Positions 4,368 through 45,116 of a DNA stretch of 47,249 nucleotides are shown here, one piece after another; the stretch's first letter is position 1; every line of letters begins with the position of its first letter. This DNA is from a bacterium (GTDB lineage: Bacteria > Patescibacteriota > Minisyncoccia > Moranbacterales > UBA2206). The position numbers were made by a program, and so were the translations under genes. The notes beneath the pieces were generated by a model. It saw only the letters and a program-made list of their open reading frames with translations. It did no database searches and was not told the DNA's origin. The DNA is taken from contig JAJYBE010000001.1 of NCBI GenBank assembly GCA_021779205.1, positions 1 to 47,249 on the forward strand. Reading direction: 5' to 3'.

Positions 4368-6271
4368 TAATTTACTATTTCATATTTACCGCCTAAACCA
4401 CTATCTTCAGGAAGTCGTGTAGTTTTACCTGCAACTGTAGCAGAAATATTCTCTCCCGTAAATGAATCCTTGGCAGAAAACACTGATTCATTGAGTAATG
4501 GTGCTTCCTTTCTAAATTGATCAATGGAAGGTTTAATTTTTATCTGAAAAGCCACTTCCTTTGCCGGAGAAGATATTCCTGCGCCCGCAGGCAGATTGCC
4601 GATATTCCAAACGATTGAATTTAATCTTTCATCATAGAACAATGGCGATCCTTCAGGAAAGAAAACCCCTGTCACACTAACTGAAGTCGGCAAAACAGAC
4701 TCCACCTTTGCAGTCTCAATGTCATTGGAAACGTTTGAAGCGATAAAATGTATTGTATAGGTTGTTTCTTGGGAAACTGCAGGAGGAATTGGTCCTGAAT
4801 TTGGAATCTTGGAATCGTTATAGTAACCCTTGACATCAAGAACCAGCTTGGAATTCAATTTGATATCCATCTTGTTTCCAGAGATAATCTTATTCATGCT
4901 TATCGGCGTTGGGATATCGGGACTATCTATTTTTGCCAAACTGGAAATGACAAAATTTTTATCATTAGTGCTCGCCACCGGAATAACGCCCTTAACCCCG
5001 ATTGAAAATGCAATCACACCTCCCTGGCCGGCGGCCAAGTTTTTTAGCTCCTTATGATCTGAAGCTTTCCAGGTAATAGTTTTGTTGTTGGCATCATATG
5101 CACCTCCGTCAATATCAAGGGTCGAGTAGTCCAAGACAGTGCTATCGATATGTTCAGTAATAATCACATCCCGCAGTCCCAATGCCCCTTCGTTTTTATA
5201 ATTTATCTTAAATCGCAGCATTTCCCCGGCATTTGCCGTTAGACTTTTTAAATCATTGACGGTTTGCACTATGGTCAATGGTGAAGAAATAATCTTAGTC
5301 TGCACACTCTCTTCATTGTAGCTGATAAATTCACCGTTATTATTAGCACCGATTGTTACTCTTGCTGTTTTTATCTCATCTCGATTCCCCCCAAGCTTTC
5401 CTGCTGCTACTATTTTTCCACTCTGCCCAGCCGACAAACTGCCAATATACCAAATATTATTTCCCTCCAGCGCTCGCGGATCAGAGCTGGAAAAGGTGAA
5501 ATTATCAGGATAATCAATCTTAACTTTTATGTTTTCAAGATTTTCCGCTCCTTCGTTTTTATAGGTGATTAAGTAATTCACCTCATCATTAGCGGAAATG
5601 CTTTGAGGTGCCGCAACTTCAAGTGTTATTGGAGCAGAAATCACACCCACTGATAATTGATCGCCAGTTACAAATGTCGTGCTAACAGTAGATGGCGCAT
5701 ATGACAAATCAGCCTTAATCTTAATTAGATTTCCACGAGGACTATATGCTTGACCGCTAAAAACAACCGACCCCTCGCTTTTGCCTTTAATATCAGCAAG
5801 GCTTATCATGCTAACCATCGTACCATCACTCTTGAAGTCAGTATTGCCTTCCGGCTTAAAGTCTTCGGAATAAGTCATTTTAAGCACGACGTTTTTCAAG
5901 TCAGCCATGTTGTCATTTTTATATTTTATCGCATAAGCAACCAAGTTACCACTTCTGACTTCAGTTGGGCCGTTCAGAGAAACAGCTACTCGATCAACAC
6001 TAAAAAGGGATTGCTTGATTTTGTAGAACCCCACTGCAATCACAACAATCAAAAGCAATCCGCCAATAATAAACGCTCCTTTTTTGATAATTTTTTTATC
6101 TTCCTTTTCAATCATTTCCCCCTTTTCCAACCACTCATCTTTTGGCAAATCCATTTTTTCCGGAGAAGTAAATACTACTGATTTAGCATCAAATTCACTT
6201 TTTTCATGCTGCAACAATTCTTTATTCGGTTCTTTTTTATAAAGTTCGTTTTGGATTTCATTGAGCGACAT
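4367..6271 (-). CDS. Membrane-anchored surface protein with DUF11/CARDB-like repeats
   Basis: 634-aa ORF with an N-terminal TM segment (GAFIIGGLLLIVVIAVGFY). Repeat modules recur: VAYAIKYKNDNMADLKNVVL, VNYLITYKNEGAENLENIKV, LRFKINYKNEGALGLRDVII, TYTIHFIASNVSNDIETAKV. Confidence 0.6.
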   Translation of the reverse strand: MSLNEIQNELYKKEPNKELLQHEKSEFDAKSVVFTSPEKMDLPKDEWLEKGEMIEKEDKKIIKKGAFIIGGLLLIVVIAVGFYKIKQSLFSVDRVAVSLNGPTEVRSGNLVAYAIKYKNDNMADLKNVVLKMTYSEDFKPEGNTDFKSDGTMVSMISLADIKGKSEGSVVFSGQAYSPRGNLIKIKADLSYAPSTVSTTFVTGDQLSVGVISAPITLEVAAPQSISANDEVNYLITYKNEGAENLENIKVKIDYPDNFTFSSSDPRALEGNNIWYIGSLSAGQSGKIVAAGKLGGNRDEIKTARVTIGANNNGEFISYNEESVQTKIISSPLTIVQTVNDLKSLTANAGEMLRFKINYKNEGALGLRDVIITEHIDSTVLDYSTLDIDGGAYDANNKTITWKASDHKELKNLAAGQGGVIAFSIGVKGVIPVASTNDKNFVISSLAKIDSPDIPTPISMNKIISGNKMDIKLNSKLVLDVKGYYNDSKIPNSGPIPPAVSQETTYTIHFIASNVSNDIETAKVESVLPTSVSVTGVFFPEGSPLFYDERLNSIVWNIGNLPAGAGISSPAKEVAFQIKIKPSIDQFRKEAPLLNESVFSAKDSFTGENISATVAGKTTRLPEDSGLGGKYEIVN

Positions 6272-8609: not shown

Positions 8610-9799
8610 ATTTTTGCTTTGAAATTATTAATCTCTCTTTTATAAATTTTTTCCCACAAAAGAGCGATATTTCTGTCAGATAATTTTTGCGCAAATTCCA
8701 ATGAACGCTCGGATAAACTATTTCTCAAGTTCGTATTTTCCAAAAGTAAAACAAATTTTTCTGCGAGCGCCTTTGAATCCCCTGGTTCCACAAGAATACC
8801 ACTTTCTCCAATATATTCAAAGCCCCGCGCTCTCACCCCGACAGTTGGCAATCCGCAAGCCATGGCCTGGATGAGCGTCATGCTTTGAATTTCCGAGGTG
8901 CTGGTTATGGAAAAAATGTCCGAAGCCCGATAGAGATCAGCCAGCTCGAAGTGACTGAGCGTTCCAAAAAATTTCACATTTTTCTCGAGACCCAATTCCA
9001 ACACCAATTTATTTATTTCTTCAAAATAACCGCCATGGCCTGCCATAGCTAAAGTGATGCCGGGAATTTTTTCTTTAACAAGGGCAATGGCGCGCACAAT
9101 CACATCAATATTTTTTTCTGGCGCGAATCTTCCCGCATAAACAACCACGTGTTCGTTTAATTTTAATTTTTCTTTCAACTCAGTCTTATTATGATCGACA
9201 GTCAAATTGAAAGTTTTCATATCAACCGGATTATAGACCGTCTCGTGCCGCGCCTTAAACCCATTTTTTCTCATCTCATCAAGCAATAATTTTGACGGAG
9301 AAGTTGTTAACTGGCATTTACCATAATACCAATTGACATATTTCAAACTAAAACGCTCGACCCATTCGCCTCTTATTGGCGCATATTTCACATACTGCAC
9401 AATCGCCGTATGATTAGTTCCAAGAAAAGGCACCTTAAGTATTTTTGCGGCAAGCATTGCCTCCAGCCCTACGCCAAAAAAAAGATGGGAATGAATCACA
9501 TCCGGTCTGAATTTTTTAATTGCAATCCAGCGCAAGCCAGTTGGGATAACCATCCGTCCTTGCTTGGTTGGTGTTGGATAGGAAACAGCAAAAAAGCGCG
9601 TAATTTCAATGCCATTATCCAAATCAATTTCTCGCTTGGAACCAATGCCCCCCGTTTTGAAATCTTTCTCGGAATAGCTCGGAACAAAAAAGCGAACTGT
9701 GTGACCACATTTCGCCAACTCTCGCGCGGAAGCAATGATAGAGTCGGAAATACCGCTTAATTCCGGATAGAAATTATCACAAAAAATTGCAATGCGCAT
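8606..9799 (-). CDS. Glycosyltransferase family 4 (GT-B, group 1)
   Basis: 397-aa ORF. N-terminus is MRIAIFCDNFYPELSGISDSI. C-terminal motifs are SEIQSMTLIQAMACGLPTVG and E..G.LV. Confidence 0.85.
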   Translation of the reverse strand: MRIAIFCDNFYPELSGISDSIIASARELAKCGHTVRFFVPSYSEKDFKTGGIGSKREIDLDNGIEITRFFAVSYPTPTKQGRMVIPTGLRWIAIKKFRPDVIHSHLFFGVGLEAMLAAKILKVPFLGTNHTAIVQYVKYAPIRGEWVERFSLKYVNWYYGKCQLTTSPSKLLLDEMRKNGFKARHETVYNPVDMKTFNLTVDHNKTELKEKLKLNEHVVVYAGRFAPEKNIDVIVRAIALVKEKIPGITLAMAGHGGYFEEINKLVLELGLEKNVKFFGTLSHFELADLYRASDIFSITSTSEIQSMTLIQAMACGLPTVGVRARGFEYIGESGILVEPGDSKALAEKFVLLLENTNLRNSLSERSLEFAQKLSDRNIALLWEKIYKREINNFKAKI

Positions 9800-10739: not shown

Positions 10740-10972
10740 CTAAAAATGCTTCTCAGTAAAAGCACGTCCGGATCCTGATTTTAAATATTTTTCAAATTCA
10801 AATGCTTTGTATTTGTCAGAAAAAGCAAAATAACACATCAACTCTATGGGCAATAAATCTTTGGTGGCCGGAACATATCCGCAATTATGCCTTTTTATTC
10901 GTTCTTTTAAATCAGAGGCGCAACCAATATAGGGTTTTCATTTTTACATTTTAAAATATAAACGTAATGCAT
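10740..10972 (-). pseudogene. GIY-YIG nuclease mini-gene with a 1-nt frameshift
   Basis: Own translation gives MHYVYILKCKNENP, then a shift near 10930-10935. After the shift it reads YIGCASDLKERIKRHNCGYVPATKDLLPIELMCYFAFSDKYKAFEFEKYLKSGSGRAFTEKHF and a stop. The length is 233 nt, which is not a multiple of 3. Confidence 0.75.
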
Positions 10973-11043
10973 AGTGGGCGAAACCCGCCTTCGCGTGCTC
11001 CCGGCGGACTTTGTCCGCCGTAGCCCGCTTCGGCGGGCGAAGG
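10973..11043. repeat. Cluster of GC-rich hairpins between the GIY-YIG pseudogene and tRNA-Ser
   Basis: On the minus strand: gcccgc-cgaa-gcgggc, ggcggac-aaa-gtccgcc, and cgcgaaggcggg. The last is the same core as the GIY-YIG cassette inverted repeats. Confidence 0.7.
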
Positions 11044-11985: not shown

Positions 11986-12050
11986 GTGTCATAAAAACTT
12001 TTAAAGAGAAGATGGCAGGTTCCCTGCCGGCAGGCAGGGATTCAAGCTAG
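11986..12050. repeat. Solo TGTCAT-plus-hairpin element with a tRNA 3'-end-like tail
   Basis: Sequence: tgtcat...ggcaggttCCCTGCCggcaGGCAGGGattcaagctagcgcaca. The stem is ccctgcc/ggcaggg. The strings gcaggttc and agcgcaca repeat the tRNA-Arg 3' part. Confidence 0.55.
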
Positions 12051-12057
12051 CGCACAA

Positions 12058-14277
12058 ATGAATACTCTTCTCAAAAACATTCCCAAAATTACTCCGAAAT
12101 ATGTCAAAACTTTGGAAAAATTGGGACTATTCACTATCCAAGATTTTTTGTTCTATCTCCCCCGTCGTTATGACGACTTTTCAAAGACCGTCGCGCTTTC
12201 CGAAGAATATCTCAACTCTGTCATAACTGTCTGCGCCATCGTGACCAAGGTAAAGTTAAACCGCATTTTTCGACGCAAATTGACGATTGCAGAAGTAATC
12301 TTTGAAGATGAAAACCAAACGCCCTTGAAAGCCGTCTGGTTCAATCAACCTTTCATTCTCGAATCAATGCCCATCGGCACCGAAGTTCGCTTGTCTGGAA
12401 AGCTAAAATTAAAAGGCAAATATTTCACACTTTCTAATCCCGCTTGGGAACGTGCCAGCCGCGAAAAAACCAATACTGGGCAACTCGTACCGGTCTACTC
12501 GGAAACACCCGGCATCACCTCAAAATGGATCCGCTGGCAGATGAAAACTTTCTTGGAGAAAAACCAAAATTTGGAAGATTTTGTTCCAGAAGAATTACGT
12601 AAAAAATTGCATCTCTATTCTCTGACCTCGGCGCTCCGCCAATTGCACTTTCCGGAAAATGAGGAGAAACTGCTCATCGCCAAGAAAACTTTCGCTTTTC
12701 GTGAAATGTTTTTGATGCAGCTGAAAACCTTGCAGATGAAAAACGTCTGGGAAGCGCAAAGTGCTCCAAGTCTTCGGTTCGATGAAGAATTGATTGAAAA
12801 ATTTATCGAAAATTTACCTTTCCAATTGACCGGTGCGCAACACAAGGCTTCGATTGAGATTCTCAAAGATTTGGAAAAAACTTGTCCCATGAATCGCCTG
12901 CTTAATGGAGACGTGGGCACTGGAAAAACGGTCGTCGCGGCCATTTCCGCGCTGAGCGTACTTTCCCAAAATCAGCAAGTGGCCATTCTTGCTCCAACTG
13001 AAGTTTTGGCGTTGCAACACTTCCAATCATTTTCAAAACTTTTCAAAAATTATGATTTTAATGTTGCTTTGCTTACGAGTTCTTATAAACTAATTAACTG
13101 TTGTCATTCTGAGCGAAGCGGAGCGCAGTCGAAGAATCTGCAAGCAATTACACCAAAGCTTTCTAATAAATCACTAGCCCCGCGATTATCGTCAGCAGAT
13201 CCTTCGACTACGTCCCGAGTACAGGACTCCGCTCAGGATGACATGTCAAAAATTACGCGCGAGCAAATGATCAGTCAAATTGAAAGTGGAGAAATAAACT
13301 TAGTCATCGGCACACATGCCATTATTCAAAAAGATGTTAGTTTTAAAAATTTAGCTTTGGTCATTATCGACGAACAGCACAGATTTGGCGTCACGCAAAG
13401 ATCTGTCTTGCAACAGGAAACCATGGAATTTAAAGATGGTAAAAAAAAGACTATCCCCCACTTGCTTACAATGACTGCTACGCCAATTCCACGAACTCTA
13501 GCAATTGCATTTTTTGGCAGTCTTGATTTGTCTGTTTTAGACGAAATGCCCCGTAACCGAAAACCAATCAAAACCAAAATTGTCTTGCCGACACAAAGAG
13601 ATCAGGTCTATGCTTTTATGCGCCGTGAGATTGGTGCCGGCCGCCAAGTATTTGTCATTTTGCCCTTTGTCGAAGAATCAAAAGTGCTCACGGAAGTCAA
13701 GGCCGCCACCGAAGAGCATAAAAAATTATCTCTCATTTTTCCGGAATATTCTTTGGGACTTTTGCATGGTCGGCTCAAATCAAAAGAGAAAGAAGCGATG
13801 ATGCAAGATTTTAAGAAGAAGAAAAGTCAAATTCTCGTTTCCACTTCCGTTGTCGAAGTAGGCATTGATATTCCCAATGCGACCATTATGCTCATTGAAA
13901 ATTCCGACCGTTTCGGCCTTTCTCAACTCCACCAATTCCGCGGCCGAGTCGGTCGCGGCGCTCATCAATCCTATTGTTTTCTCTTCACTGACTCAACCAC
14001 CCAGACGTCTCTCGAACGCTTGCGCGCGCTGGAAAAAAGTAATGATGGTTTCAAACTTTCCGAAATTGATCTCCAGCTGCGCGGCCCCGGTCAACTCCTT
14101 GGCAAGGCTCAATCCGGCCTTTCGGACATTGCGATGGAAAATCTTAATAATTTAAAATTAATTAAGATTGCACGCGCGGAAGCAGAGAATATTCTAAAAA
14201 CTGATGCAAAACTAAAAAAGCATCCACTACTGGCGAAGGCCTTGGAAAAGTTTGCGAAGGCTGTGCATTTGGAGTGA
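12058..14277 (+). CDS. recG: ATP-dependent DNA helicase RecG with an internal insertion of about 52 aa
   Basis: 739-aa ORF with an N-terminal wedge/OB region, motif I GDVGTGKT, Ia LAPTEVLALQH, II IIDEQHRFGV, LTMTATPIPRTL, and QLHQFRGRVGRG. Confidence 0.92.
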   Translation: MNTLLKNIPKITPKYVKTLEKLGLFTIQDFLFYLPRRYDDFSKTVALSEEYLNSVITVCAIVTKVKLNRIFRRKLTIAEVIFEDENQTPLKAVWFNQPFILESMPIGTEVRLSGKLKLKGKYFTLSNPAWERASREKTNTGQLVPVYSETPGITSKWIRWQMKTFLEKNQNLEDFVPEELRKKLHLYSLTSALRQLHFPENEEKLLIAKKTFAFREMFLMQLKTLQMKNVWEAQSAPSLRFDEELIEKFIENLPFQLTGAQHKASIEILKDLEKTCPMNRLLNGDVGTGKTVVAAISALSVLSQNQQVAILAPTEVLALQHFQSFSKLFKNYDFNVALLTSSYKLINCCHSERSGAQSKNLQAITPKLSNKSLAPRLSSADPSTTSRVQDSAQDDMSKITREQMISQIESGEINLVIGTHAIIQKDVSFKNLALVIIDEQHRFGVTQRSVLQQETMEFKDGKKKTIPHLLTMTATPIPRTLAIAFFGSLDLSVLDEMPRNRKPIKTKIVLPTQRDQVYAFMRREIGAGRQVFVILPFVEESKVLTEVKAATEEHKKLSLIFPEYSLGLLHGRLKSKEKEAMMQDFKKKKSQILVSTSVVEVGIDIPNATIMLIENSDRFGLSQLHQFRGRVGRGAHQSYCFLFTDSTTQTSLERLRALEKSNDGFKLSEIDLQLRGPGQLLGKAQSGLSDIAMENLNNLKLIKIARAEAENILKTDAKLKKHPLLAKALEKFAKAVHLE
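13102..13244. mobile_element. 143-bp MITE-like inverted-repeat element inserted in frame in recG
   Basis: Left arm at 13102-13140: tgtcattctgagcgaagcggagcgcagtcgaagaatctg. Reverse complement of the right arm at 13197-13244: tgtcatcctgagcggagtcctgtactcgggacgtagtcgaaggatctg. The element is GC-rich relative to its surroundings. Confidence 0.75.
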
Positions 14278-15089: not shown

Positions 15090-15498
15090 ATGTCATCCCC
15101 GCGAAGGCGGGGATCCAGACACCACAAGGCTAATTATTATACAAAATCGAGAGATAGATCCCTCCACTTACTGTTATCCTTTTCAATTAATTTTAGCTTC
15201 CAATTTCTGTTCCATCTTTTGAGTTGTTTTTCTCTGGCAATAGCACTGACGATATCATTTGTTTGTTCAAAATAGACTAGAGTTTTTGCGTTATACTTTT
15301 TTGTAAATCCATCAATCAGTCCTTGTTTATGTTCAAAAACTCTTTTTACTAAATTTGAAGTTACTCCAATATACAAAGTTCCATTTCTTTCACTAGCTAG
15401 AATATATACAAAATAATCCTTAGTTATCATTGCAATAATTCGTTTTCTCTTTATGGGGCACTGGTGGTACCTGGATTCCCGCCTTCGCGGGAATAACA
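15090..15498 (-). mobile_element. GIY-YIG mini-gene cassette bounded by 35-bp terminal inverted repeats
   Basis: Left repeat at 15090-15124: tgtcatccccgcgaaggcggggatccagacaccac. Reverse complement of the right repeat at 15464-15498: tgttattcccgcgaaggcgggaatccaggtaccac. They match at 30 of 35 positions, and each arm holds its own cccgc-gaa-gcggg hairpin. Confidence 0.75.
15137..15430 (-). CDS. GIY-YIG nuclease family protein (97 aa)
   Basis: MITKDYFVYILASERNGTLYIGVTSNLVKRVFEHKQG...AREKQLKRWNRNWK. The track ORF extends to 15499, but that extension (MLFPRRRESRYHQ..) is a translation of the inverted repeat. Confidence 0.85.
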   Translation of the reverse strand: MITKDYFVYILASERNGTLYIGVTSNLVKRVFEHKQGLIDGFTKKYNAKTLVYFEQTNDIVSAIAREKQLKRWNRNWKLKLIEKDNSKWRDLSLDFV

Positions 15499-32920: not shown

Positions 32921-33874
32921 TTATTTTTTACTCTTTCTGCTTATGGGAACGGAAAAGCTAAAAATTGACCCGAGATTCTCGACAGAATCAAACCAAATTT
33001 TCCCATTCAATTGTTCAATGATATTTTTAGCAATATACAACCCAAGACCAGTTCCTTCTGTTTGATATTTAACCACATTATCGCTACGAAAAAATTTATC
33101 AAAAACCCGATCATGCTGTTCAAGGGGAATTCCAACACCATTATCTTTGACGCTAAAAACCACAAAATCACCTTTTTTGAGCAGTTTTATTTCAATTTTA
33201 CCATGATTAGTGGTGTATTTAATGGAATTATTAAGCAGATTTTCAATCACCATTCTTATTTTTTCCGGATCACCAAAAACCAAAGGAATATTTTTTTTGT
33301 CTTTAAAAACTACCTCGATATTTCTCATCTTAACAATAGTACTCACTCCGGTTACAGCTTCTTCAACAAGCTCAACTATATTCACCGGCATTTTTCTTAT
33401 AATGAGCCGTCCCTGATCAATTCTGGCAACATCTAAGAGATCATTGACTAATTTAGTCATCTTGCCACTCAAAGTATTGATATTTTCAATGCTTTGGCGC
33501 TGTTTCGTACTCACTGATTCTTTTCTAAACTTTGAGAGCAAGAGTTCCGTTTCCCATCTAATGGCTGACAGCGGGGTCCTTAGCTGATGAGAAGCTACGG
33601 AAACAAACTCGCTTTTCATTCTATTTAGCCGTATCATCTGCTCAATCAGACTTATCACAAAATTTCCCACGCTTAGAATGACAATAACGACAATACTTTC
33701 CGCCACAACGAGCATTTCCGGACTATCATAATTCTTAGAGATATAAAAAGTTGCAGTCATAACCACTACTGATAAAACGCCCAGCATGATAAACAGAAAA
33801 CCGGGGGTTTGCCAAAACTTTATTCCCAAATCACGTGCCTGCTTTTTCAAATTTAGATCATTAACAATCCACAT
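32921..33874 (-). CDS. Sensor histidine kinase (2 TM segments, HisKA, HATPase_c)
   Basis: H-box SVASHQLRTPLSAI, N-box NLLNNSIKYT, and G-boxes DNGVGIP and GTGLGLYIAKNI. Confidence 0.88.
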   Translation of the reverse strand: MWIVNDLNLKKQARDLGIKFWQTPGFLFIMLGVLSVVVMTATFYISKNYDSPEMLVVAESIVVIVILSVGNFVISLIEQMIRLNRMKSEFVSVASHQLRTPLSAIRWETELLLSKFRKESVSTKQRQSIENINTLSGKMTKLVNDLLDVARIDQGRLIIRKMPVNIVELVEEAVTGVSTIVKMRNIEVVFKDKKNIPLVFGDPEKIRMVIENLLNNSIKYTTNHGKIEIKLLKKGDFVVFSVKDNGVGIPLEQHDRVFDKFFRSDNVVKYQTEGTGLGLYIAKNIIEQLNGKIWFDSVENLGSIFSFSVPISRKSKK

Positions 33875-39919: not shown

Positions 39920-40594
39920 CTATTCCAACGTCAAAACCTTGCTATTCTCCCTTAGCCACTTCCGCGCTTGTTTATATTCTGGCATCACCGCTGCAACTTT
40001 GTTCCAAAATTTTGCCGAATGATTTTTTTCCAAGATATGCATCAGCTCGTGGATGATGACATAATCCACAACACGCTCAGGCGCCATAATCAGCCGCCAA
40101 TTGAAATTCAAACTATTTTTCGGCCCGCATGACCCCCAATTAGTTTTGGCATTGGAAATTTTGAGTGTTGAATATTTAAGATTTAATTTACTGGCAATAA
40201 TTTTTGTCCGTTCGCCAATTTTTTCCTTAGCTTGTTTTTTGTACCAATCATGCATCCGTGCCTTTGCCCGCCACAAAAAAACACGCGGAAAAAGCAGCTC
40301 GAAATCATCAGTAATTTCAATCTTAAGTCCACTGGTCAGCGCTAGTTTATGTTTTTTCCCCAGATACAAAAATTCTTCTCCTTCAAAAAAAGTTTTTCTC
40401 TCCGCTTTCGGTCGCTTTTCAAATTCCCGCATCTTCCTTTCAATCCAAACAAATTTTTCCTCAACTAATTTCTCAATGTAACTCAAAGGCGTCCACATAG
40501 GCGCACGCACAACCAAAGTCGCGTCAACAGAAATCACCAGCGCGATGTTTTTTCTTTTTGAGCGGATGATTTTTGAGATTTTTATTTTTGACAT
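39920..40594 (-). CDS. DUF45/YgjP-like (SprT/WLM-like fold) zinc metallopeptidase
   Basis: 224-aa ORF with the HExxH motif in VVDYVIIHELMHILEKNHSAKFW, which is typical of YgjP-family proteins. Confidence 0.75.
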   Translation of the reverse strand: MSKIKISKIIRSKRKNIALVISVDATLVVRAPMWTPLSYIEKLVEEKFVWIERKMREFEKRPKAERKTFFEGEEFLYLGKKHKLALTSGLKIEITDDFELLFPRVFLWRAKARMHDWYKKQAKEKIGERTKIIASKLNLKYSTLKISNAKTNWGSCGPKNSLNFNWRLIMAPERVVDYVIIHELMHILEKNHSAKFWNKVAAVMPEYKQARKWLRENSKVLTLE

Positions 40595-40606
40595 AAATTA
40601 ATAATT

Positions 40607-40798
40607 GTCATTCCCGCGGAGGCGGGAATCTAGTCGCAAGGCTATCTTAGGATATACACCCACCAAACCAAGAGCGACTTCTGATTGATTAGATTTAGTC
40701 TTCTAATTTTTCTATTATTTATATTGCTTATCAAAACACCAGAATGATCATTTTTTACTAAGTCTATACACTGGATTCCCGCCTCCGTGGGAATGATA
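40607..40798. mobile_element. 192-bp cargo-less derivative of the GIY-YIG cassette (MITE-like)
   Basis: Left at 40607-40634: tgtcattcccgcggaggcgggaatctag. Reverse complement of the right end at 40771-40798: tatcattcccacggaggcgggaatccag. They match at 25 of 28 positions. The left flank continues ..caaggcta as in the 15090 element. There is no intact ORF inside. Confidence 0.7.
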
Positions 40799-40833: not shown

Positions 40834-42105
40834 CTACTCCATAAACCTCTTCTTTCTCAACTTCTTATGATACATAATTGCAAAACGATGCGCTTCGTCG
40901 CGGATGTGTTCTATGAGTTCGTCGGATATCTCCGGCACACTGCCAAAAGCATAGCGATCCAGTTTTTTGCGGGTCGGACCTTTGGCGACAGCCAAAAGCG
41001 GAATTTCCAGATGAAAATTTTTGAGCACGCGACGCACAGCGGTGAGATGACCTTGTCCGCCGTCTAAAATTATGAGGTCTGGCATCGGCCAATTATTGCC
41101 AAATCTGCGCCCCAGCACTTCCGCCATTGAAGCAGTGTCATTCGCACCCTCTACAGTTTTAATTTTAAATTTGCGATACTGACTCTTGTTCGGACCAATT
41201 TCCCCATTCGCATTATCAAATACCACCATTGATCCAACGCTCGATTTTCCGAAAATATTGGAAATATCATAACCCTCAATGCGAAATTTTGAATTTTGAG
41301 TTTTGAATTTTAAATTTTTTTGGAAATTGGAAATTGGAAATTGGAAATTATCATCGCCCTTAGCGATGAGCGCTATATCCTGGATGTGTTGCAACGCAAA
41401 AATCGCATTGCGCACTTTAAGCGCTTTTTCAAATTCCTGCTTCTCGCTTAGCGCTGACATTTCTTTTTTCATTTTGGCAATGAGACTTCTTTTCTTTCCT
41501 TCCAAAATCATCCAGATGCCCCGGATATTTTTCGCATAGTCCTCCTTCGAAATCGCCCCGGCATACGGCCCCGGACAAAGCCCGATCTGAAAATCCAGAC
41601 ACCCCTTTTCCGTTTTTTGCGCCTTGGAATGATAGGGAAAAATTTTCCTCAGGATTTTCAACGCGATTTCAATATTTTTCTTGGAAATATACGGCCCGTA
41701 GATTTTACTAAATTTTGATTTTATATCACCATCTTGATCCATCTCCCTTTTTCGTAAAAATAATATACGCGGAAAATCTTCTTTCGTAATTGCCACATAA
41801 GAAAATGATTTGTCATCTTTTCCGTCCACATTCAATTTCGGCTGCCACTTCTTGATCTGTTCTTGCTCTAAAATATATGCCTCCAAAACTGTTTCGGTTT
41901 TCCGAACTTCAATATCCGCCACTTGAGAAATAAACATTTCAATCGGTCGCGCATATCTACTGCGCCCTTGAAAATATGATCCGACCCGGTTTTTGAGCGA
42001 CGTCGCTTTACCCACATACAAAATTTCTCCGGCATTATTCCGAAAAATATAGACCCCCGGAGAAGTCGGCAGACTTTTCAGTTTTTTACTAATTTTAGTT
42101 GACAT
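40834..42105 (-). CDS. uvrC: Excinuclease ABC subunit UvrC, short form (423 aa, no C-terminal (HhH)2 domain)
   Basis: GIY-YIG N-terminus (PTSPGVYIFRNNAGEILYVGKATSLKNRV), UVR-like segment (EKQEFEKALKVRNAIFALQHI), and endonuclease domain (RIEGYDISNIFG..SMVVF..YRKFKIK..PDLIILDGGQGHL). It ends 20 aa after DEAHRFAI. Confidence 0.88.
   Translation of the reverse strand: MSTKISKKLKSLPTSPGVYIFRNNAGEILYVGKATSLKNRVGSYFQGRSRYARPIEMFISQVADIEVRKTETVLEAYILEQEQIKKWQPKLNVDGKDDKSFSYVAITKEDFPRILFLRKREMDQDGDIKSKFSKIYGPYISKKNIEIALKILRKIFPYHSKAQKTEKGCLDFQIGLCPGPYAGAISKEDYAKNIRGIWMILEGKKRSLIAKMKKEMSALSEKQEFEKALKVRNAIFALQHIQDIALIAKGDDNFQFPISNFQKNLKFKTQNSKFRIEGYDISNIFGKSSVGSMVVFDNANGEIGPNKSQYRKFKIKTVEGANDTASMAEVLGRRFGNNWPMPDLIILDGGQGHLTAVRRVLKNFHLEIPLLAVAKGPTRKKLDRYAFGSVPEISDELIEHIRDEAHRFAIMYHKKLRKKRFME
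41283..41348. repeat. Two abutting heptamer arrays inside uvrC
   Basis: (GAATTTT-like) x5 at 41283-41318, then (TGGAAAT) x4 at 41321-41348. They encode NFQFPISNFQKNLKFKTQNSKF on the minus strand. Confidence 0.85.
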
Positions 42106-42125: not shown

Positions 42126-45116
42126 TCAGTGACTTAAGATTTCCTTAAGATATTTCCCCGTCCAACTCTCCTTGTCCCACTTCGCCACTTCTTCCGGCGT
42201 ACCGGAAACAATCACACGCCCACCTTCTTTTCCGCCTTCCGGTCCCAGATCAATAATCCAATCGGCGGTTTTTATTACGTCTAAATTATGTTCAATTACA
42301 ATCACTGTGTTTCCCGCATCAACCAAACGATTGAGAATTCCCAACAGTTTTTTGATGTCATCAAAATGCAAACCGGTTGTCGGTTCGTCAAGAATATAAA
42401 GCGTATCGCCAGTTGCACGCCTGGAAAGTTCAGTGGAAAGTTTGATGCGTTGCGCTTCTCCGCCGGAAAGTGTCGTGGCGGATTGACCGAGTTGAATGTA
42501 GCCCAGACCGACATCTTCCAAGACTTTCAGTTTGTCAGCAATATCGTGAAAACTAGCAAAAAATTCGCGCGCCTCAGTTATGGTCATCACCAATACATCA
42601 GCGATATTTTTATCACGATACTTCACTTTGAGCGTTTCGCTGTTGTAGCGCTTCCCGCCGCAAACATCGCAAGGCAGATAAACATCCGGCATAAATTGCA
42701 TTTCGATTTTGTTGTACCCATCGCCCTGACAATTATCACAACGTCCGCCTTTGACGTTGAAAGAAAAGCGACCCGGGGAATAGCCTTTTGCTTTGGCGTC
42801 CCTTGTTTCTGCGAACAGTTCGCGGATCGCCGTAAATAGTCCGGTGTAGGTTGCTGGATTCGATCTCGGTGTACGTCCAATCGGCGACTGATCAATCATA
42901 ATCACCTTGTTGAGATAATGATCGCCAACTATTTCACTGTGCTTGCCCGGCCGTTCCAGTGAGTGCATAATTTTAGCCGAAAGCGCTTTGTAAAGAATAT
43001 CCCCTACTAGTGTTGATTTTCCTGAACCGGATACGCCTGTCACGCAAGTCAAAACTTTGAGCGGAAATGACACGGTAATGTTTTGCAAATTATGCTCGCG
43101 CGCTCCTCGCACCACAAGTGTTTTTTTATTTTTTAAAGATCGCCTGGAAGCCGGAATTTCAATCTGCAAATCTCCTCGCAAATATTTGGCGGTTAGTGAT
43201 TTTTCACTTTGCATTACTTCTGCCGGCGATCCCTCAGCGACAATTTCCCCACCATATTTTCCCGCTCCCGGACCAATGTCCACAAGATAGTCCGCCGCAC
43301 GCATTGTTTCTTCATCATGCTCCACGACGATCAGGGTATTTCCTACATCTCTGAGTTGCAAAAGTGTCGAGAGCAATTTTGCATTATCGCGAGCGTGGAG
43401 ACCAATTGATGGTTCGTCCAGAATATAAAGCACGCCAACTAATTGAGAACCGATTTGCGACGCCAGGCGGATGCGCTGCGACTCTCCGCCGGCAAGAGTA
43501 TTGGCAGCGCGACCAAGCGAGAGATAACCAAGACCCACATCTTGCAAAAAACCTAACCGATTTTGAATTTCTTTGAAAATCCGACCGGCAATCAGTTCTT
43601 CGCGTTTGCTAAAATTTATTTTTTGAAAAAAATCCAAAGTCTCTCTCACACTGATAGTGGAAACTTCATGGATATTTTTATCCCCGACTGTCACCAAAAG
43701 CACTTCTTTTTTATAGCGAGATCCAAGGCAAGTCGAACAAGGATTTTGGGACATATATTTCTCAATGTCTGTACGCACTGCTTCTGAATCCGTCTTGAGA
43801 TAACGATCTTGCAAATAGCCCGCCACTCCTCGCCAACGCATATTATATTTCCAACTTGATCCGGTCTTGCTCCGCAACGTCACAGGAATTTCATCCGCTT
43901 CTTCTTCGCCAATCATATCAGTTGCTTCAGGTCCGCCATAGAGCAAGGTTTTGAAATCATCATCGGATAAATCCCGCAACCGCACATTGTCACGAATGTG
44001 ATAGAAATTTGTCACCGCGCGAAGAATCGTTCCCTGCCAATTATTTTTTTTATAACTCCACGGCATGATTCCGCCTTCGGCAATGGTTTTATTCATATCC
44101 GGCACAACTAAATCAGGATCGATTTCCTTCTTCATGCCCAGACCATCACAAGATGGACAAGCACCAAACGGACTATTGAAAGAAAATAGGCGTGGCTCCA
44201 ACTCAGGAAAATCAATCTCATGAATTGGACAAGAAAAATTCTGATTAAAAATCATCTCACTGGCTTCATTTTTTTCACTAGCCTTGCTTTTATTTAGCAT
44301 TTTACCCTTTTTGTCATTGGAAATTGAGATTTGGGATTTGTTTAGAAATTGGAAATTAGAAATTGGAAATTTCACTTTGATTATTCCTTTCGACAAATTC
44401 AACGCTTGTTCCACGCCCTCAAAAATCCGTGAAATATTTTCCGAATTTATTTCTACTTTATCAACCAATATATCAATATTATGTTTTTTATAGCGTTCCA
44501 ATTTCACTCGCGTGCCAATCTTTTCATCCAATGCATATTTTTTTCCATTCACAATAGCAGTGGAAAATCCTCGCCGAAACATTTCTTCCAATAGAGTGGA
44601 ATATTCACCTTTGCGTTCCCGTACAATAGGAGAGAAGATTTCAATCACACAACTGTCTTTTGCCGATTTCTTATCTCCTTCCGTGCAAATATTTAAAATC
44701 CGATTCACTATCTCATCCGTCGAGAGCCTAACGATTTCTCGTCCGCAAATCGGACAATGCGCCATGCCAATTTTGGCATAGAGCAATCGCAGGTAGTCAT
44801 GAATTTCCGTCACCGTTCCCACCGTTGAACGCGGATTGTGCGAAGCGGCTTTTTGATCAATCGAAATCGCCGGACTCAGACCTTCGATCGAATCAACTTC
44901 CGGTTTTCCCATTTGTCCCAAAAACTGCCTGGCATAGCTCGAAAGACTTTCGAGATATCTCCGTTGCCCTTCGGCAAAAATAGTATCAAAAGCCAGCGTA
45001 CTCTTGCCTGAGCCGGAAATTCCCGTAAAAACAATAAACTTATTCCGTGGCAAATCAAGATTGATGTTTTTGAGATTATGTTCTCTTGCTCCGCGGATAA
45101 TTAATTCGTCTTGCAT
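42126..45116 (-). CDS. uvrA: Excinuclease ABC subunit UvrA, 996-aa paralogue
   Basis: [12 protein letters not shown] and [23 protein letters not shown] and [12 protein letters not shown], plus the Zn modules CPIC, CPSC, CSTC and CDNC..CDVC. Confidence 0.93.
44319..44371. repeat. Heptamer array (RGAAATT and degenerate units) inside the 996-aa uvrA
   Basis: Units read ggaaatt gagattt gggattt gttt agaaatt ggaaatt agaaatt ggaaatt. They encode [18 protein letters not shown] on the minus strand. Confidence 0.8.

Follow-up and report, generated by a model that had tools for sequence, protein, structure and literature searches.

In-frame palindromic repeats within bacterial genes have so far been a speciality of Rickettsia, whose palindromic elements (RPEs; Ogata et al. 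2000, 2002) are summarised in PMC10969869. A second relevant system is formed by the Ssn proteins, single-domain GIY-YIG nucleases of about 94-95 amino acids that bind NTS hairpins only as single-stranded DNA (ssDNA; Chenal et al. 2025, PMC11893778). Ssn enzymes nick ssDNA a few nucleotides upstream of a GTCAT tag, do not act on double-stranded DNA or RNA, and are encoded by ssnA genes in an NTS-ssnA-NTS arrangement that resembles an insertion sequence (IS). In the same paper, NTS lie within genes in only 2% of cases, and bacteria of the Candidate Phyla Radiation (CPR) are unmentioned. The subject here is a 142-bp palindromic element inside the recG gene of a CPR bacterium of the Moranbacteria, located on contig JAJYBE010000001.1 of GenBank assembly GCA_021779205.1. 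The whole stretch analysed, 47,249 nucleotides, is called the window, and coordinates are positions in it unless given with another locus; L and P numbers denote the loci and RecG orthologues compared. The best explanation of the whole, to which we assign a probability of roughly 0.8, is that the element is a gene-less relative of an Ssn unit carried as an in-frame passenger in RecG.

A palindromic element in frame within recG

The host gene encodes a protein with the Pfam domains RecG_wedge, DEAD, Helicase_C and RecG_dom3_C, and its best solved relatives are 1GM5 (Thermotoga maritima RecG) and 9WM0. The gene and the parts of its insert are as follows.

12058 to 14277, + strand: recG open reading frame (ORF) from the ORF list, 739 amino acids, host of the insert, all helicase motifs intact.
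13102 to 13243, unstranded: 142-bp palindromic non-autonomous element, TGTCAT...ATGACA, recognised by inverted repeats, fold, alleles without the element and family copies.
13102 to 13141, + strand: left arm ("T/A type") with TGTCAT tag, ATTCT...AGAAT closing stem, variable inner loop and ATCTGC tail, recognised by pattern and nhmmer.
13142 to 13194, unstranded: central segment of 53 bp and 40% GC, the position of the GIY-YIG gene in autonomous relatives; here the arms join without an ORF.
13195 to 13243, - strand: right arm ("C/G type"), TGTCATCCTGAGCG...GTCGAAGGATCTGC, recognised by nhmmer and by identity to an arm in L114.

Translated in the recG frame, the element yields 48 residues (C349-D396) just after motif Ib, directly following LLTSSYK and lying between motif Ia (LAPTEVLALQH) and motif II (DEQH). 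An initial annotation of the window had described an in-frame inverted-repeat element between motifs Ia and II, and the ORF, the arms and the comparison with T. maritima RecG bear this out. The imperfect inverted repeats that it reported resolve into outer arms (13102-13118 and 13227-13243; 17 nt, 88% complementary) and inner arms (13119-13141 and 13195-13217; 23 nt, 83% complementary). Some of its figures required adjustment. The element, as delimited from TGTCAT to ATGACA, measures 142 bp instead of 143, and the extra residues number 48 instead of about 52, the flanking LIN. and.MS being recG. The higher GC content stands, but "conspicuously GC-rich" was an overstatement, since the contrast is modest (50% in the element against 42% in the rest of recG) and is carried by the arms (55-57%); the nearest 100 nt have 28-35% GC.

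The element ends are exact inverted copies of TGTCATYCTGAGCG. The exact termini are TGTCATTCTGAGCG (13102, + strand) and TGTCATCCTGAGCG (13243, - strand), for which 0.44 matches are expected by chance at two or fewer mismatches. As a whole, the element folds far better than shuffled sequences (z = -5.6 for the + strand and -6.6 for the - strand), with the mRNA-strand hairpin reaching -54 kcal/mol. Its open reading frame, also part of the first description, is upheld in a strict sense: the only stop-free frame is the one that recG uses. Terminal inverted repeats, small size and the lack of an internal gene are traits of MITEs (transposable elements of the miniature inverted-repeat class), and the element is read only as a part of recG. 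No promoter-like or terminator-like site was found in 12800-13500. Among curated RNA families, Rfam gave no match to the element at the gathering threshold; the sole match at E < 1 was to a plant microRNA model (23 bits against a gathering score of 135) and is spurious.

The segment is an insert and not a RecG domain. Two comparisons were available: a set of the 120 best RecG homologues, all from Moranbacteria or related Patescibacteria, and a RecG-alignment scan of genome contigs which, among the matches listed, returned mostly distant phyla, with Moranbacteria represented only by L001-L003; the distant loci were used as an outgroup. The alignment with T. maritima RecG breaks off after LLIG and picks up again at the helix KEKIKS, T. 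maritima having 6 residues where the window has 59. The initial annotation had itself raised a conserved domain in unrelated taxa as the alternative. Among 79 RecG loci from other phyla, the segment from PT to DEQHRF is 78 amino acids long in 37, and none of the 79 carries the insert running from Cys-His to Asp-Asp. Empty-site alleles, for which it had proposed to search by orthologue alignment, exist among orthologues that are 83-88% identical: the element is absent in P0007 and P0011 and shared by P0002, P0003, P0004 and P0008. P0009 and P0014 keep just Cys-His-Ser of it. At the DNA level, L084, in the same range of identity, retains a 13-nt footprint, TGTCATTC-TGACA, which lacks the interior that separates two TGA triplets at the palindrome's base. 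The element occupies the identical recG position in four other assemblies (L081/L082, L083, L085 and L086) and is therefore real and not an artefact.

Structure and selection agree with this picture. In an AlphaFold model built with 60 homologues, the mean predicted local distance difference test score (pLDDT) is 76, and values below 50 occur only at residues 351-394, which is the insert; modelling, another course proposed at the outset, thus places it as a low-confidence loop between well-modelled elements. The 48-residue loop is probably disordered, as judged from this model. Among five orthologues that share the element, the ratio of nonsynonymous to synonymous divergence (dN/dS) reaches 0.40-0.69 within the insert, against 0.06-0.07 for the remainder of recG. 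The contrast implies that purifying selection on RecG stayed strong once the element was in place, and that the added peptide drifts. Synonymous divergence (dS) is two- to fivefold lower in the insert (0.30-0.67) than in the rest of the gene (1.17-1.67). The inserted peptide is a passenger.

Arms shared with GIY-YIG gene units

The arms of the element recur outside recG. The left arm fits the pattern TGTCATYCTGAGCGN{8,38}GTCGAAGRATCTRC, and an arm hidden Markov model built without the window recovers the left arm at E = 1.2e-10 and the right arm at E = 4.9e-11 (nhmmer). The left arm is identical to an arm in L209 at 39/40 positions, and the right arm to the right arm of an arm-ssn-arm unit in L114 at 47/49. 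Copies of the family occur in L002, L085, L114, L169 and L209. Full-length intergenic relatives are found in L209 (78% identity over all 142 nt), L114 (3658-3799), L085 (9395-9559) and L169, and L002 has the window's family at the same RecG place in the opposite orientation. Other copies of the termini, a genome-wide count of which had been suggested at the outset, are thus present on other contigs, both between genes and in another RecG.

In three loci (L114, 2110-2521; L179, 3457-3978; and L105), the arms bracket one small GIY-YIG ORF and nothing else, forming units of about 410-520 bp. At the protein level, the GIY-YIG product of L114 shares 55% identity, and that of L179 54%, with the one encoded in the window. 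The initial annotation had suggested a non-autonomous relative of GIY-YIG cassettes on the strength of a shared TGTCAT, and this now extends to the same arms flanking GIY-YIG genes. The window itself contains two further elements that belong to this comparison.

15091 to 15498, - strand: autonomous-type unit consisting of an SRM hairpin, an Ssn-like GIY-YIG gene (15137-15430, - strand) and an SRM hairpin, recognised by PF01541 and an NTS match.
40606 to 40798, unstranded: gene-less doublet of NTS-type hairpins, a second non-autonomous element, with ends matching the NTS consensus at 26/28 and 24/28.

The window's GIY-YIG protein has 97 amino acids with PF01541 as its sole domain (E = 1e-14), and more than 8000 single-domain relatives are spread across phyla; in NCBIfam it gave a weak, sub-threshold match to a group I intron endonuclease model. 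Its gene is flanked by TGTCATCCCCGCGAAGGCGGGGATCCAG and a near-copy, which agree with the NTS consensus CGTCATTCCCGCGMAVGCGGGAATCYRG at 25/28 and 26/28. The published SRM pattern, HGTCWYN(0-2)YYVSBRHN(0-5)WNVSBRGN(0-2)RNCYNB, has a single match in the window, at 15091-15118, and this hairpin folds at -11.7 kcal/mol (z = -5.2). By its size, single GIY-YIG domain and SRM flanks, the protein of 15137-15430 appears to be Ssn-like. The gene-less doublet at 40606-40798, in the spacer between the ORF 39920-40594 and uvrC, comes from the family matching the Ssn cassette that the window itself carries.

The RecG arms carry the GTCAT tag and an ATC tail. A hairpin within the single arm draws its support from homology to the canonical hairpin and from one covarying pair, the closing pair, whose position corresponds by homology to the canonical hairpin's base; over 136 unique arms it is C-G in 108, T-A in 26, T-G in 2 and C-A in none. 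In L225 and L226, which have related arms of a simpler kind, the differences compensate each other (ATTGC/GCAAT against ATTCT/AGAAT). On account of the family, its association with GIY-YIG genes and the NTS flanks, the RecG insert is best read as a doublet that lacks a gene and belongs to a sister family whose arms are expanded.

More widely, 15 viral contigs and at least 120 metagenome contigs contain the pattern TGTCATYCTGAGCG-N(8-38)-GTCGAAGRATCTRC, and the majority of these contigs have 55-65% GC. No annotated plasmid or phage matched the element by BLAST. When the window and related loci were scanned strictly for paired TGTCAT...ATGACA and generically for GTCAT plus a 6-bp stem, little more came up than in shuffled sequence, so the genomes scanned are not saturated with such elements. 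A partial terminus at 33670-33683, with one mismatch, no partner arm and a place within a membrane-protein ORF, was judged a chance match.

Several observations accompany these findings. The SRM-GIY-YIG-SRM unit at 15091-15498 sits between a membrane-protein ORF and a glycosyltransferase gene, and presents a Neisseria NTS consensus in a CPR host. At 10907-11040, beside tRNA-Ser, there is a GIY-YIG ORF that is truncated and belongs to another subtype (MHYVYILKCKNE...), followed by short GC-rich hairpins; an intact gene of that subtype adjoins tRNA-like sequence in L087 (9398-9631), and neither has TGTCAT flanks. The small GIY-YIG genes of L087, L002, L008 and L034 were set aside as a different subtype without TGTCAT flanks. 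One 18-kb "viral" contig of 59% GC (IMG/VR contig 3300031555_011079; L097/L099) holds at least nine family copies in one orientation, most of them nested within a larger intergenic palindrome, AAATGATCGTTT...AAACGATCATTT; no GIY-YIG gene was found beside the copies in viral contigs. A hairpin of the form CCTGCC(n)GGCAGG lies just upstream of recG (12023-12034), is nested in both the RecG element (about 4850-4870) and the intergenic copy (9440-9460) of L085, and stands beside the L114 unit (2563-2585); it has the look of an independent, very small mobile hairpin for which the arms are insertion sites.

Tandem "stutters" precede many arms, made up of flank plus TGTCATCC in units of 14-22 nt and standing directly before the arms in L199, L127, L162, L111, L179 and L105. 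They fit recurrent breaks or re-insertions just after the TGTCATYC tag, the point at which the RecG footprint also breaks.

A recurrently occupied RecG loop and competing explanations

Across the lineage, this RecG loop serves as a place where such elements land or are retained. Eight or more extra residues are present there in 61 of the 120 orthologues, and every other internal RecG insertion site is occupied in only 2-8 sequences. By our reading of the classified lists, about 36-40 orthologues have inserts that start with Cys-His and end with Asp/Asn-Asp, the translation of TGTCAT...ATGACA, and about 30 more have low-complexity NFQF/KNLEIEN repeats at the loop. The inserts derive from at least six related arm families.

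Canonical NTS-type family, CHSRENGNP..LDSRLRGND, with DNA confirmed in L224.
Family CHCERSEAIS..LPRND, in L225.
Family CHSERSEES..AQDD, in L226.
The window's own type.
Family CHPELVSGS..QVQHD.
Family RHPE..IQNDG.

In most cases both junctions coincide down to the single nucleotide. The left junction falls two codons after TAT AAR, and at the right junction the final A of ATGACA opens the codon preceding a conserved Arg; the window's sub-clade departs from this by two codons at the left junction and by three at the right one. All nine sequenced RecG-resident elements have lengths of 1 mod 3 (142, 160, 151, 181, 151, 115, 79, 79 and 85), whereas intergenic copies may have any residue mod 3. Judged from the sequences, the reading frame is under selection.

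Other repeats occur at this loop and elsewhere. The RecG site of L001 holds a 32-nt perfect palindrome, GACACCGAGTGTCCAATTGGACACTCGGTGTC, translated as KDTECPIGHSVSK; P0059 and P0065 have a similar peptide, GHSVSK, at that loop, which hints at an insert of this kind in them too. UvrA (ORF 42126-45116, - strand) has an in-frame low-complexity repeat insert at 44309-44371 that ends in AATGACA, and UvrC (ORF 40834-42105, - strand) has another, NFQFPISNFQKNLKFKTQNSKF, at 41273-41349; the GAAATTGGAAATT-type repeat of these inserts also occupies the hot spot of RecG in some 30 orthologues. In P0018 and P0090, a PD-(D/E)XK domain (PF13366) of about 140 amino acids lies in frame in the helicase core after window residue 460, and is a different kind of gene-internal passenger. 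Short in-frame inserts after residues 119, 305, 426, 460, 527, 576, 585 and 646 (2-8 orthologues each), such as GPASTRGDDRSSTRG, HPVKSGEAGAKLFNRV, PVKSPNGDHGAS and SALGGSASGG, look like translations of further repeat families.

A host benefit might also explain such a loop. The insert could have become useful to Moranbacteria RecG, for example as a flexible loop that binds a partner or contacts DNA, and be kept for that reason. Its persistence in carrier genes that have diverged to dS > 1, the frame that is always kept and the extra sequence in about half of the orthologues (61/120) speak for this, as does the site itself, which follows motif Ib. In SF2 helicases this motif faces nucleic acid. 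Yet unrelated sequences occupy the loop in different orthologues, the closest relatives include footprint and empty alleles, and the insert is predicted to be disordered with a dN/dS of 0.4-0.7. Furthermore, its synonymous sites are more conserved than those of the rest of the gene, which suggests that the constraint is on the DNA and not on the peptide. We regard exaptation as improbable.

The DNA of the element has a history of its own. Its centre is similar to that of the orthologous RecG copies: by BLAST, the element is 88% identical to the RecG copy of L083 at element positions 23-108, spanning the centre. The inner loops of its arms instead match the unrelated copies of L209 and L114 (the 39/40 and 47/49 given above) and not the orthologous copies, which have other small hairpins there. 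These matches, together with the low dS of the insert, indicate that the element DNA is under constraint or is replenished from other copies, in either case irrespective of the host gene; such renewal may be by repeated insertion or by conversion-type replacement.

With these results in mind, a mechanism may be proposed for the gene-less Ssn-unit relative. The element is best taken as a miniature derivative of an "arm - ssn - arm" unit, in which two inverted arms, each with an imperfect hairpin (closing stem ATYCT/AGRAT) between a GTCAT tag and an ATCTRC tail, stand on either side of a 53-bp centre, and in its autonomous relatives the same arms enclose the gene for a single-domain GIY-YIG (Ssn-type) protein of about 95 amino acids. 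The recG copy, located in a surface loop directly after motif Ib of the first RecA-like domain, would be transcribed and translated with the gene, and the helicase would tolerate the 48-residue loop. DNA-level processes, and not the protein, would keep and renew the element, in line with arms that are near-identical to unrelated copies and a peptide that drifts. An Ssn-type enzyme may act on the arms in trans and promote their copying or replacement. Loss would occur through replication slippage at the base of the palindrome, as the L084 footprint suggests, and would leave TGTCATTC-TGACA. Both the tolerance of the loop by RecG and mobilisation in trans by an Ssn-type nuclease are points that we infer.

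A number of observations weigh against a gene-less Ssn-unit relative. The published SRM pattern is found in neither of the RecG arms, and ungapped agreement with the NTS consensus is 15/28, so that the arms relate to SRM/NTS by architecture and gene association and not by the published definition. As isolated ssDNA, the arms fold no better than shuffles (z = 0.4 and 0.1), so that thermodynamics gave no reading of the arm hairpin, and two inherited haplotypes could lie behind much of the covariation signal. The sole Ssn-like gene in the window has canonical NTS-type flanks, so the cognate enzyme for the RecG element is not seen in this genome fragment, and in L114, the nearest of the autonomous relatives, the ssn gene contains a TAG in frame. 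The 47-kb window holds no further copy of the RecG-element family. No direct repeat indicative of a target-site duplication stands beside any copy examined, and the flanks of the copies share no consistent target motif; A- or T-runs are frequent in low-GC copies. Translation through the element would follow from frame conservation only. Finally, Ssn enzymes are known only for nicking ssDNA and not for transposition (PMC11893778).

This last point equally favours mobilisation of the hairpin doublet by another enzyme, which might be a Y1 transposase (of the IS200/IS605 or RAYT type) or a DDE transposase, with the GIY-YIG genes as no more than frequent neighbours or cargo; inverted hairpin doublets without target-site duplication do resemble REPINs (PMC3116915). 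On the other side, the arms bracket a GIY-YIG gene alone on three independent contigs, in units of the size given above, and an NTS-ssnA-NTS architecture has already been published (PMC11893778). No Y1 transposase ORF was noticed beside any copy, in the course of work that made no systematic search. Mobilisation by another enzyme appears a little less credible than exaptation. Even less room is left for an intervening sequence, intron- or intein-like, whose removal after transcription or translation would yield a mature RecG without it. The long, stable hairpin on the mRNA strand might be a processing signal, but no Rfam intron family matches, 142 nt is much too small for a group I or II intron, intein motifs are lacking, and splicing would not require a stop-free element of 1 mod 3 length in 9/9 RecG copies. 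An assembly or binning artefact that put a repeat inside recG would suit a RecG protein known from a single contig, and repeats commonly cause misassembly, but it is scarcely believable given the same codon position in four other assemblies from different samples, one locus assembled twice independently (L081 from NCBI and L082 from Logan) and the uninterrupted reading frame.

A more far-reaching proposal, and one that we consider unlikely, is that the RecG loop is actively reused as a site of integration or replacement, with Ssn units and gene-less doublets moving by a single-strand mechanism that makes no target-site duplication, in the same codon phase and in either orientation. If so, the filled, empty, footprint and swapped-arm alleles would be a natural record of that mechanism. 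By analogy with NTS in Neisseria, it is also a possibility that the embedded hairpins mark incoming single-stranded recG DNA for cleavage by Ssn, in which case recombination at recG would be affected in CPR bacteria.

The literature searched yielded no paper on such elements in CPR bacteria or on SRM-type doublets inside genes. The element would extend selfish DNA inside protein-coding genes from Rickettsia to the CPR, and would link palindromes of this in-frame kind to an enzyme family that can be named, that of the Ssn GIY-YIG ssDNA nucleases, which were described recently. The mobility of Ssn units is only suspected. The allele series at one RecG loop, which includes canonical NTS doublets, expanded-arm doublets, an inverted copy, footprints and empty sites, offers concrete substrates and junctions for studying whether and how these units move, and the hot-spot behaviour is the part that could repay more work. 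For annotation, the case is a warning that length variation and odd low-complexity segments in CPR proteins such as RecG, UvrA and UvrC can be repeat insertions and not new domains.

Comparison with known systems

Among described systems, RPEs are the closest in behaviour, and the analogy drawn in the initial annotation fits as far as an in-frame palindrome tolerated by its protein is concerned. As described in PMC10969869, RPEs are palindromic repeats of about 100-150 bp in frame in housekeeping genes, read through as an extra peptide where the fold tolerates it, and the peptide is a passenger of a DNA-level element. The RecG element differs in belonging to another phylum (CPR/Moranbacteria), and its resemblance to RPEs is one of behaviour. 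In addition, an enzyme gene can be named for it because the arms bracket GIY-YIG genes, and one loop of one gene is occupied repeatedly across a lineage.

With the NTS/SRM-Ssn system, it shares the order of a 5' (T/C)GTCAT tag, a hairpin (putative in the RecG arms) and then ATCY.. (PMC11893778), as well as repeats that flank a single-domain GIY-YIG gene of about 95 amino acids in an IS-like fashion, of which the unit at 15091-15498 is a canonical example. The RecG arms differ in their length of 40-49 nt with an expanded and variable hairpin interior, and in forming an inverted doublet that lacks a gene and lies within coding sequence.

The REPIN/RAYT and IS200/IS605 systems, according to PMC3116915 and PMC3333891, likewise include non-autonomous inverted hairpin doublets without target-site duplication and an associated small nuclease acting on ssDNA hairpins; REPINs are described there as extragenic, unlike the element in recG. 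The partner here is a GIY-YIG nuclease and not an HUH/Y1 transposase. We know of no covalent-intermediate chemistry for an Ssn-type GIY-YIG nuclease. Bacterial MITEs such as Correia, ERIC and BOX (PMC10969869) are also small, have terminal inverted repeats and no ORF of their own, are related to a longer unit with the same ends, and are occasionally fused in frame to host ORFs. The RecG element differs from them in the lack of a target-site duplication and in a partner unit whose nuclease has no known transposase activity. Taken together, the RecG insert is best read as RPE-like in behaviour, as a relative of Ssn/SRM in parentage, and as REPIN-like in form with a GIY-YIG partner.

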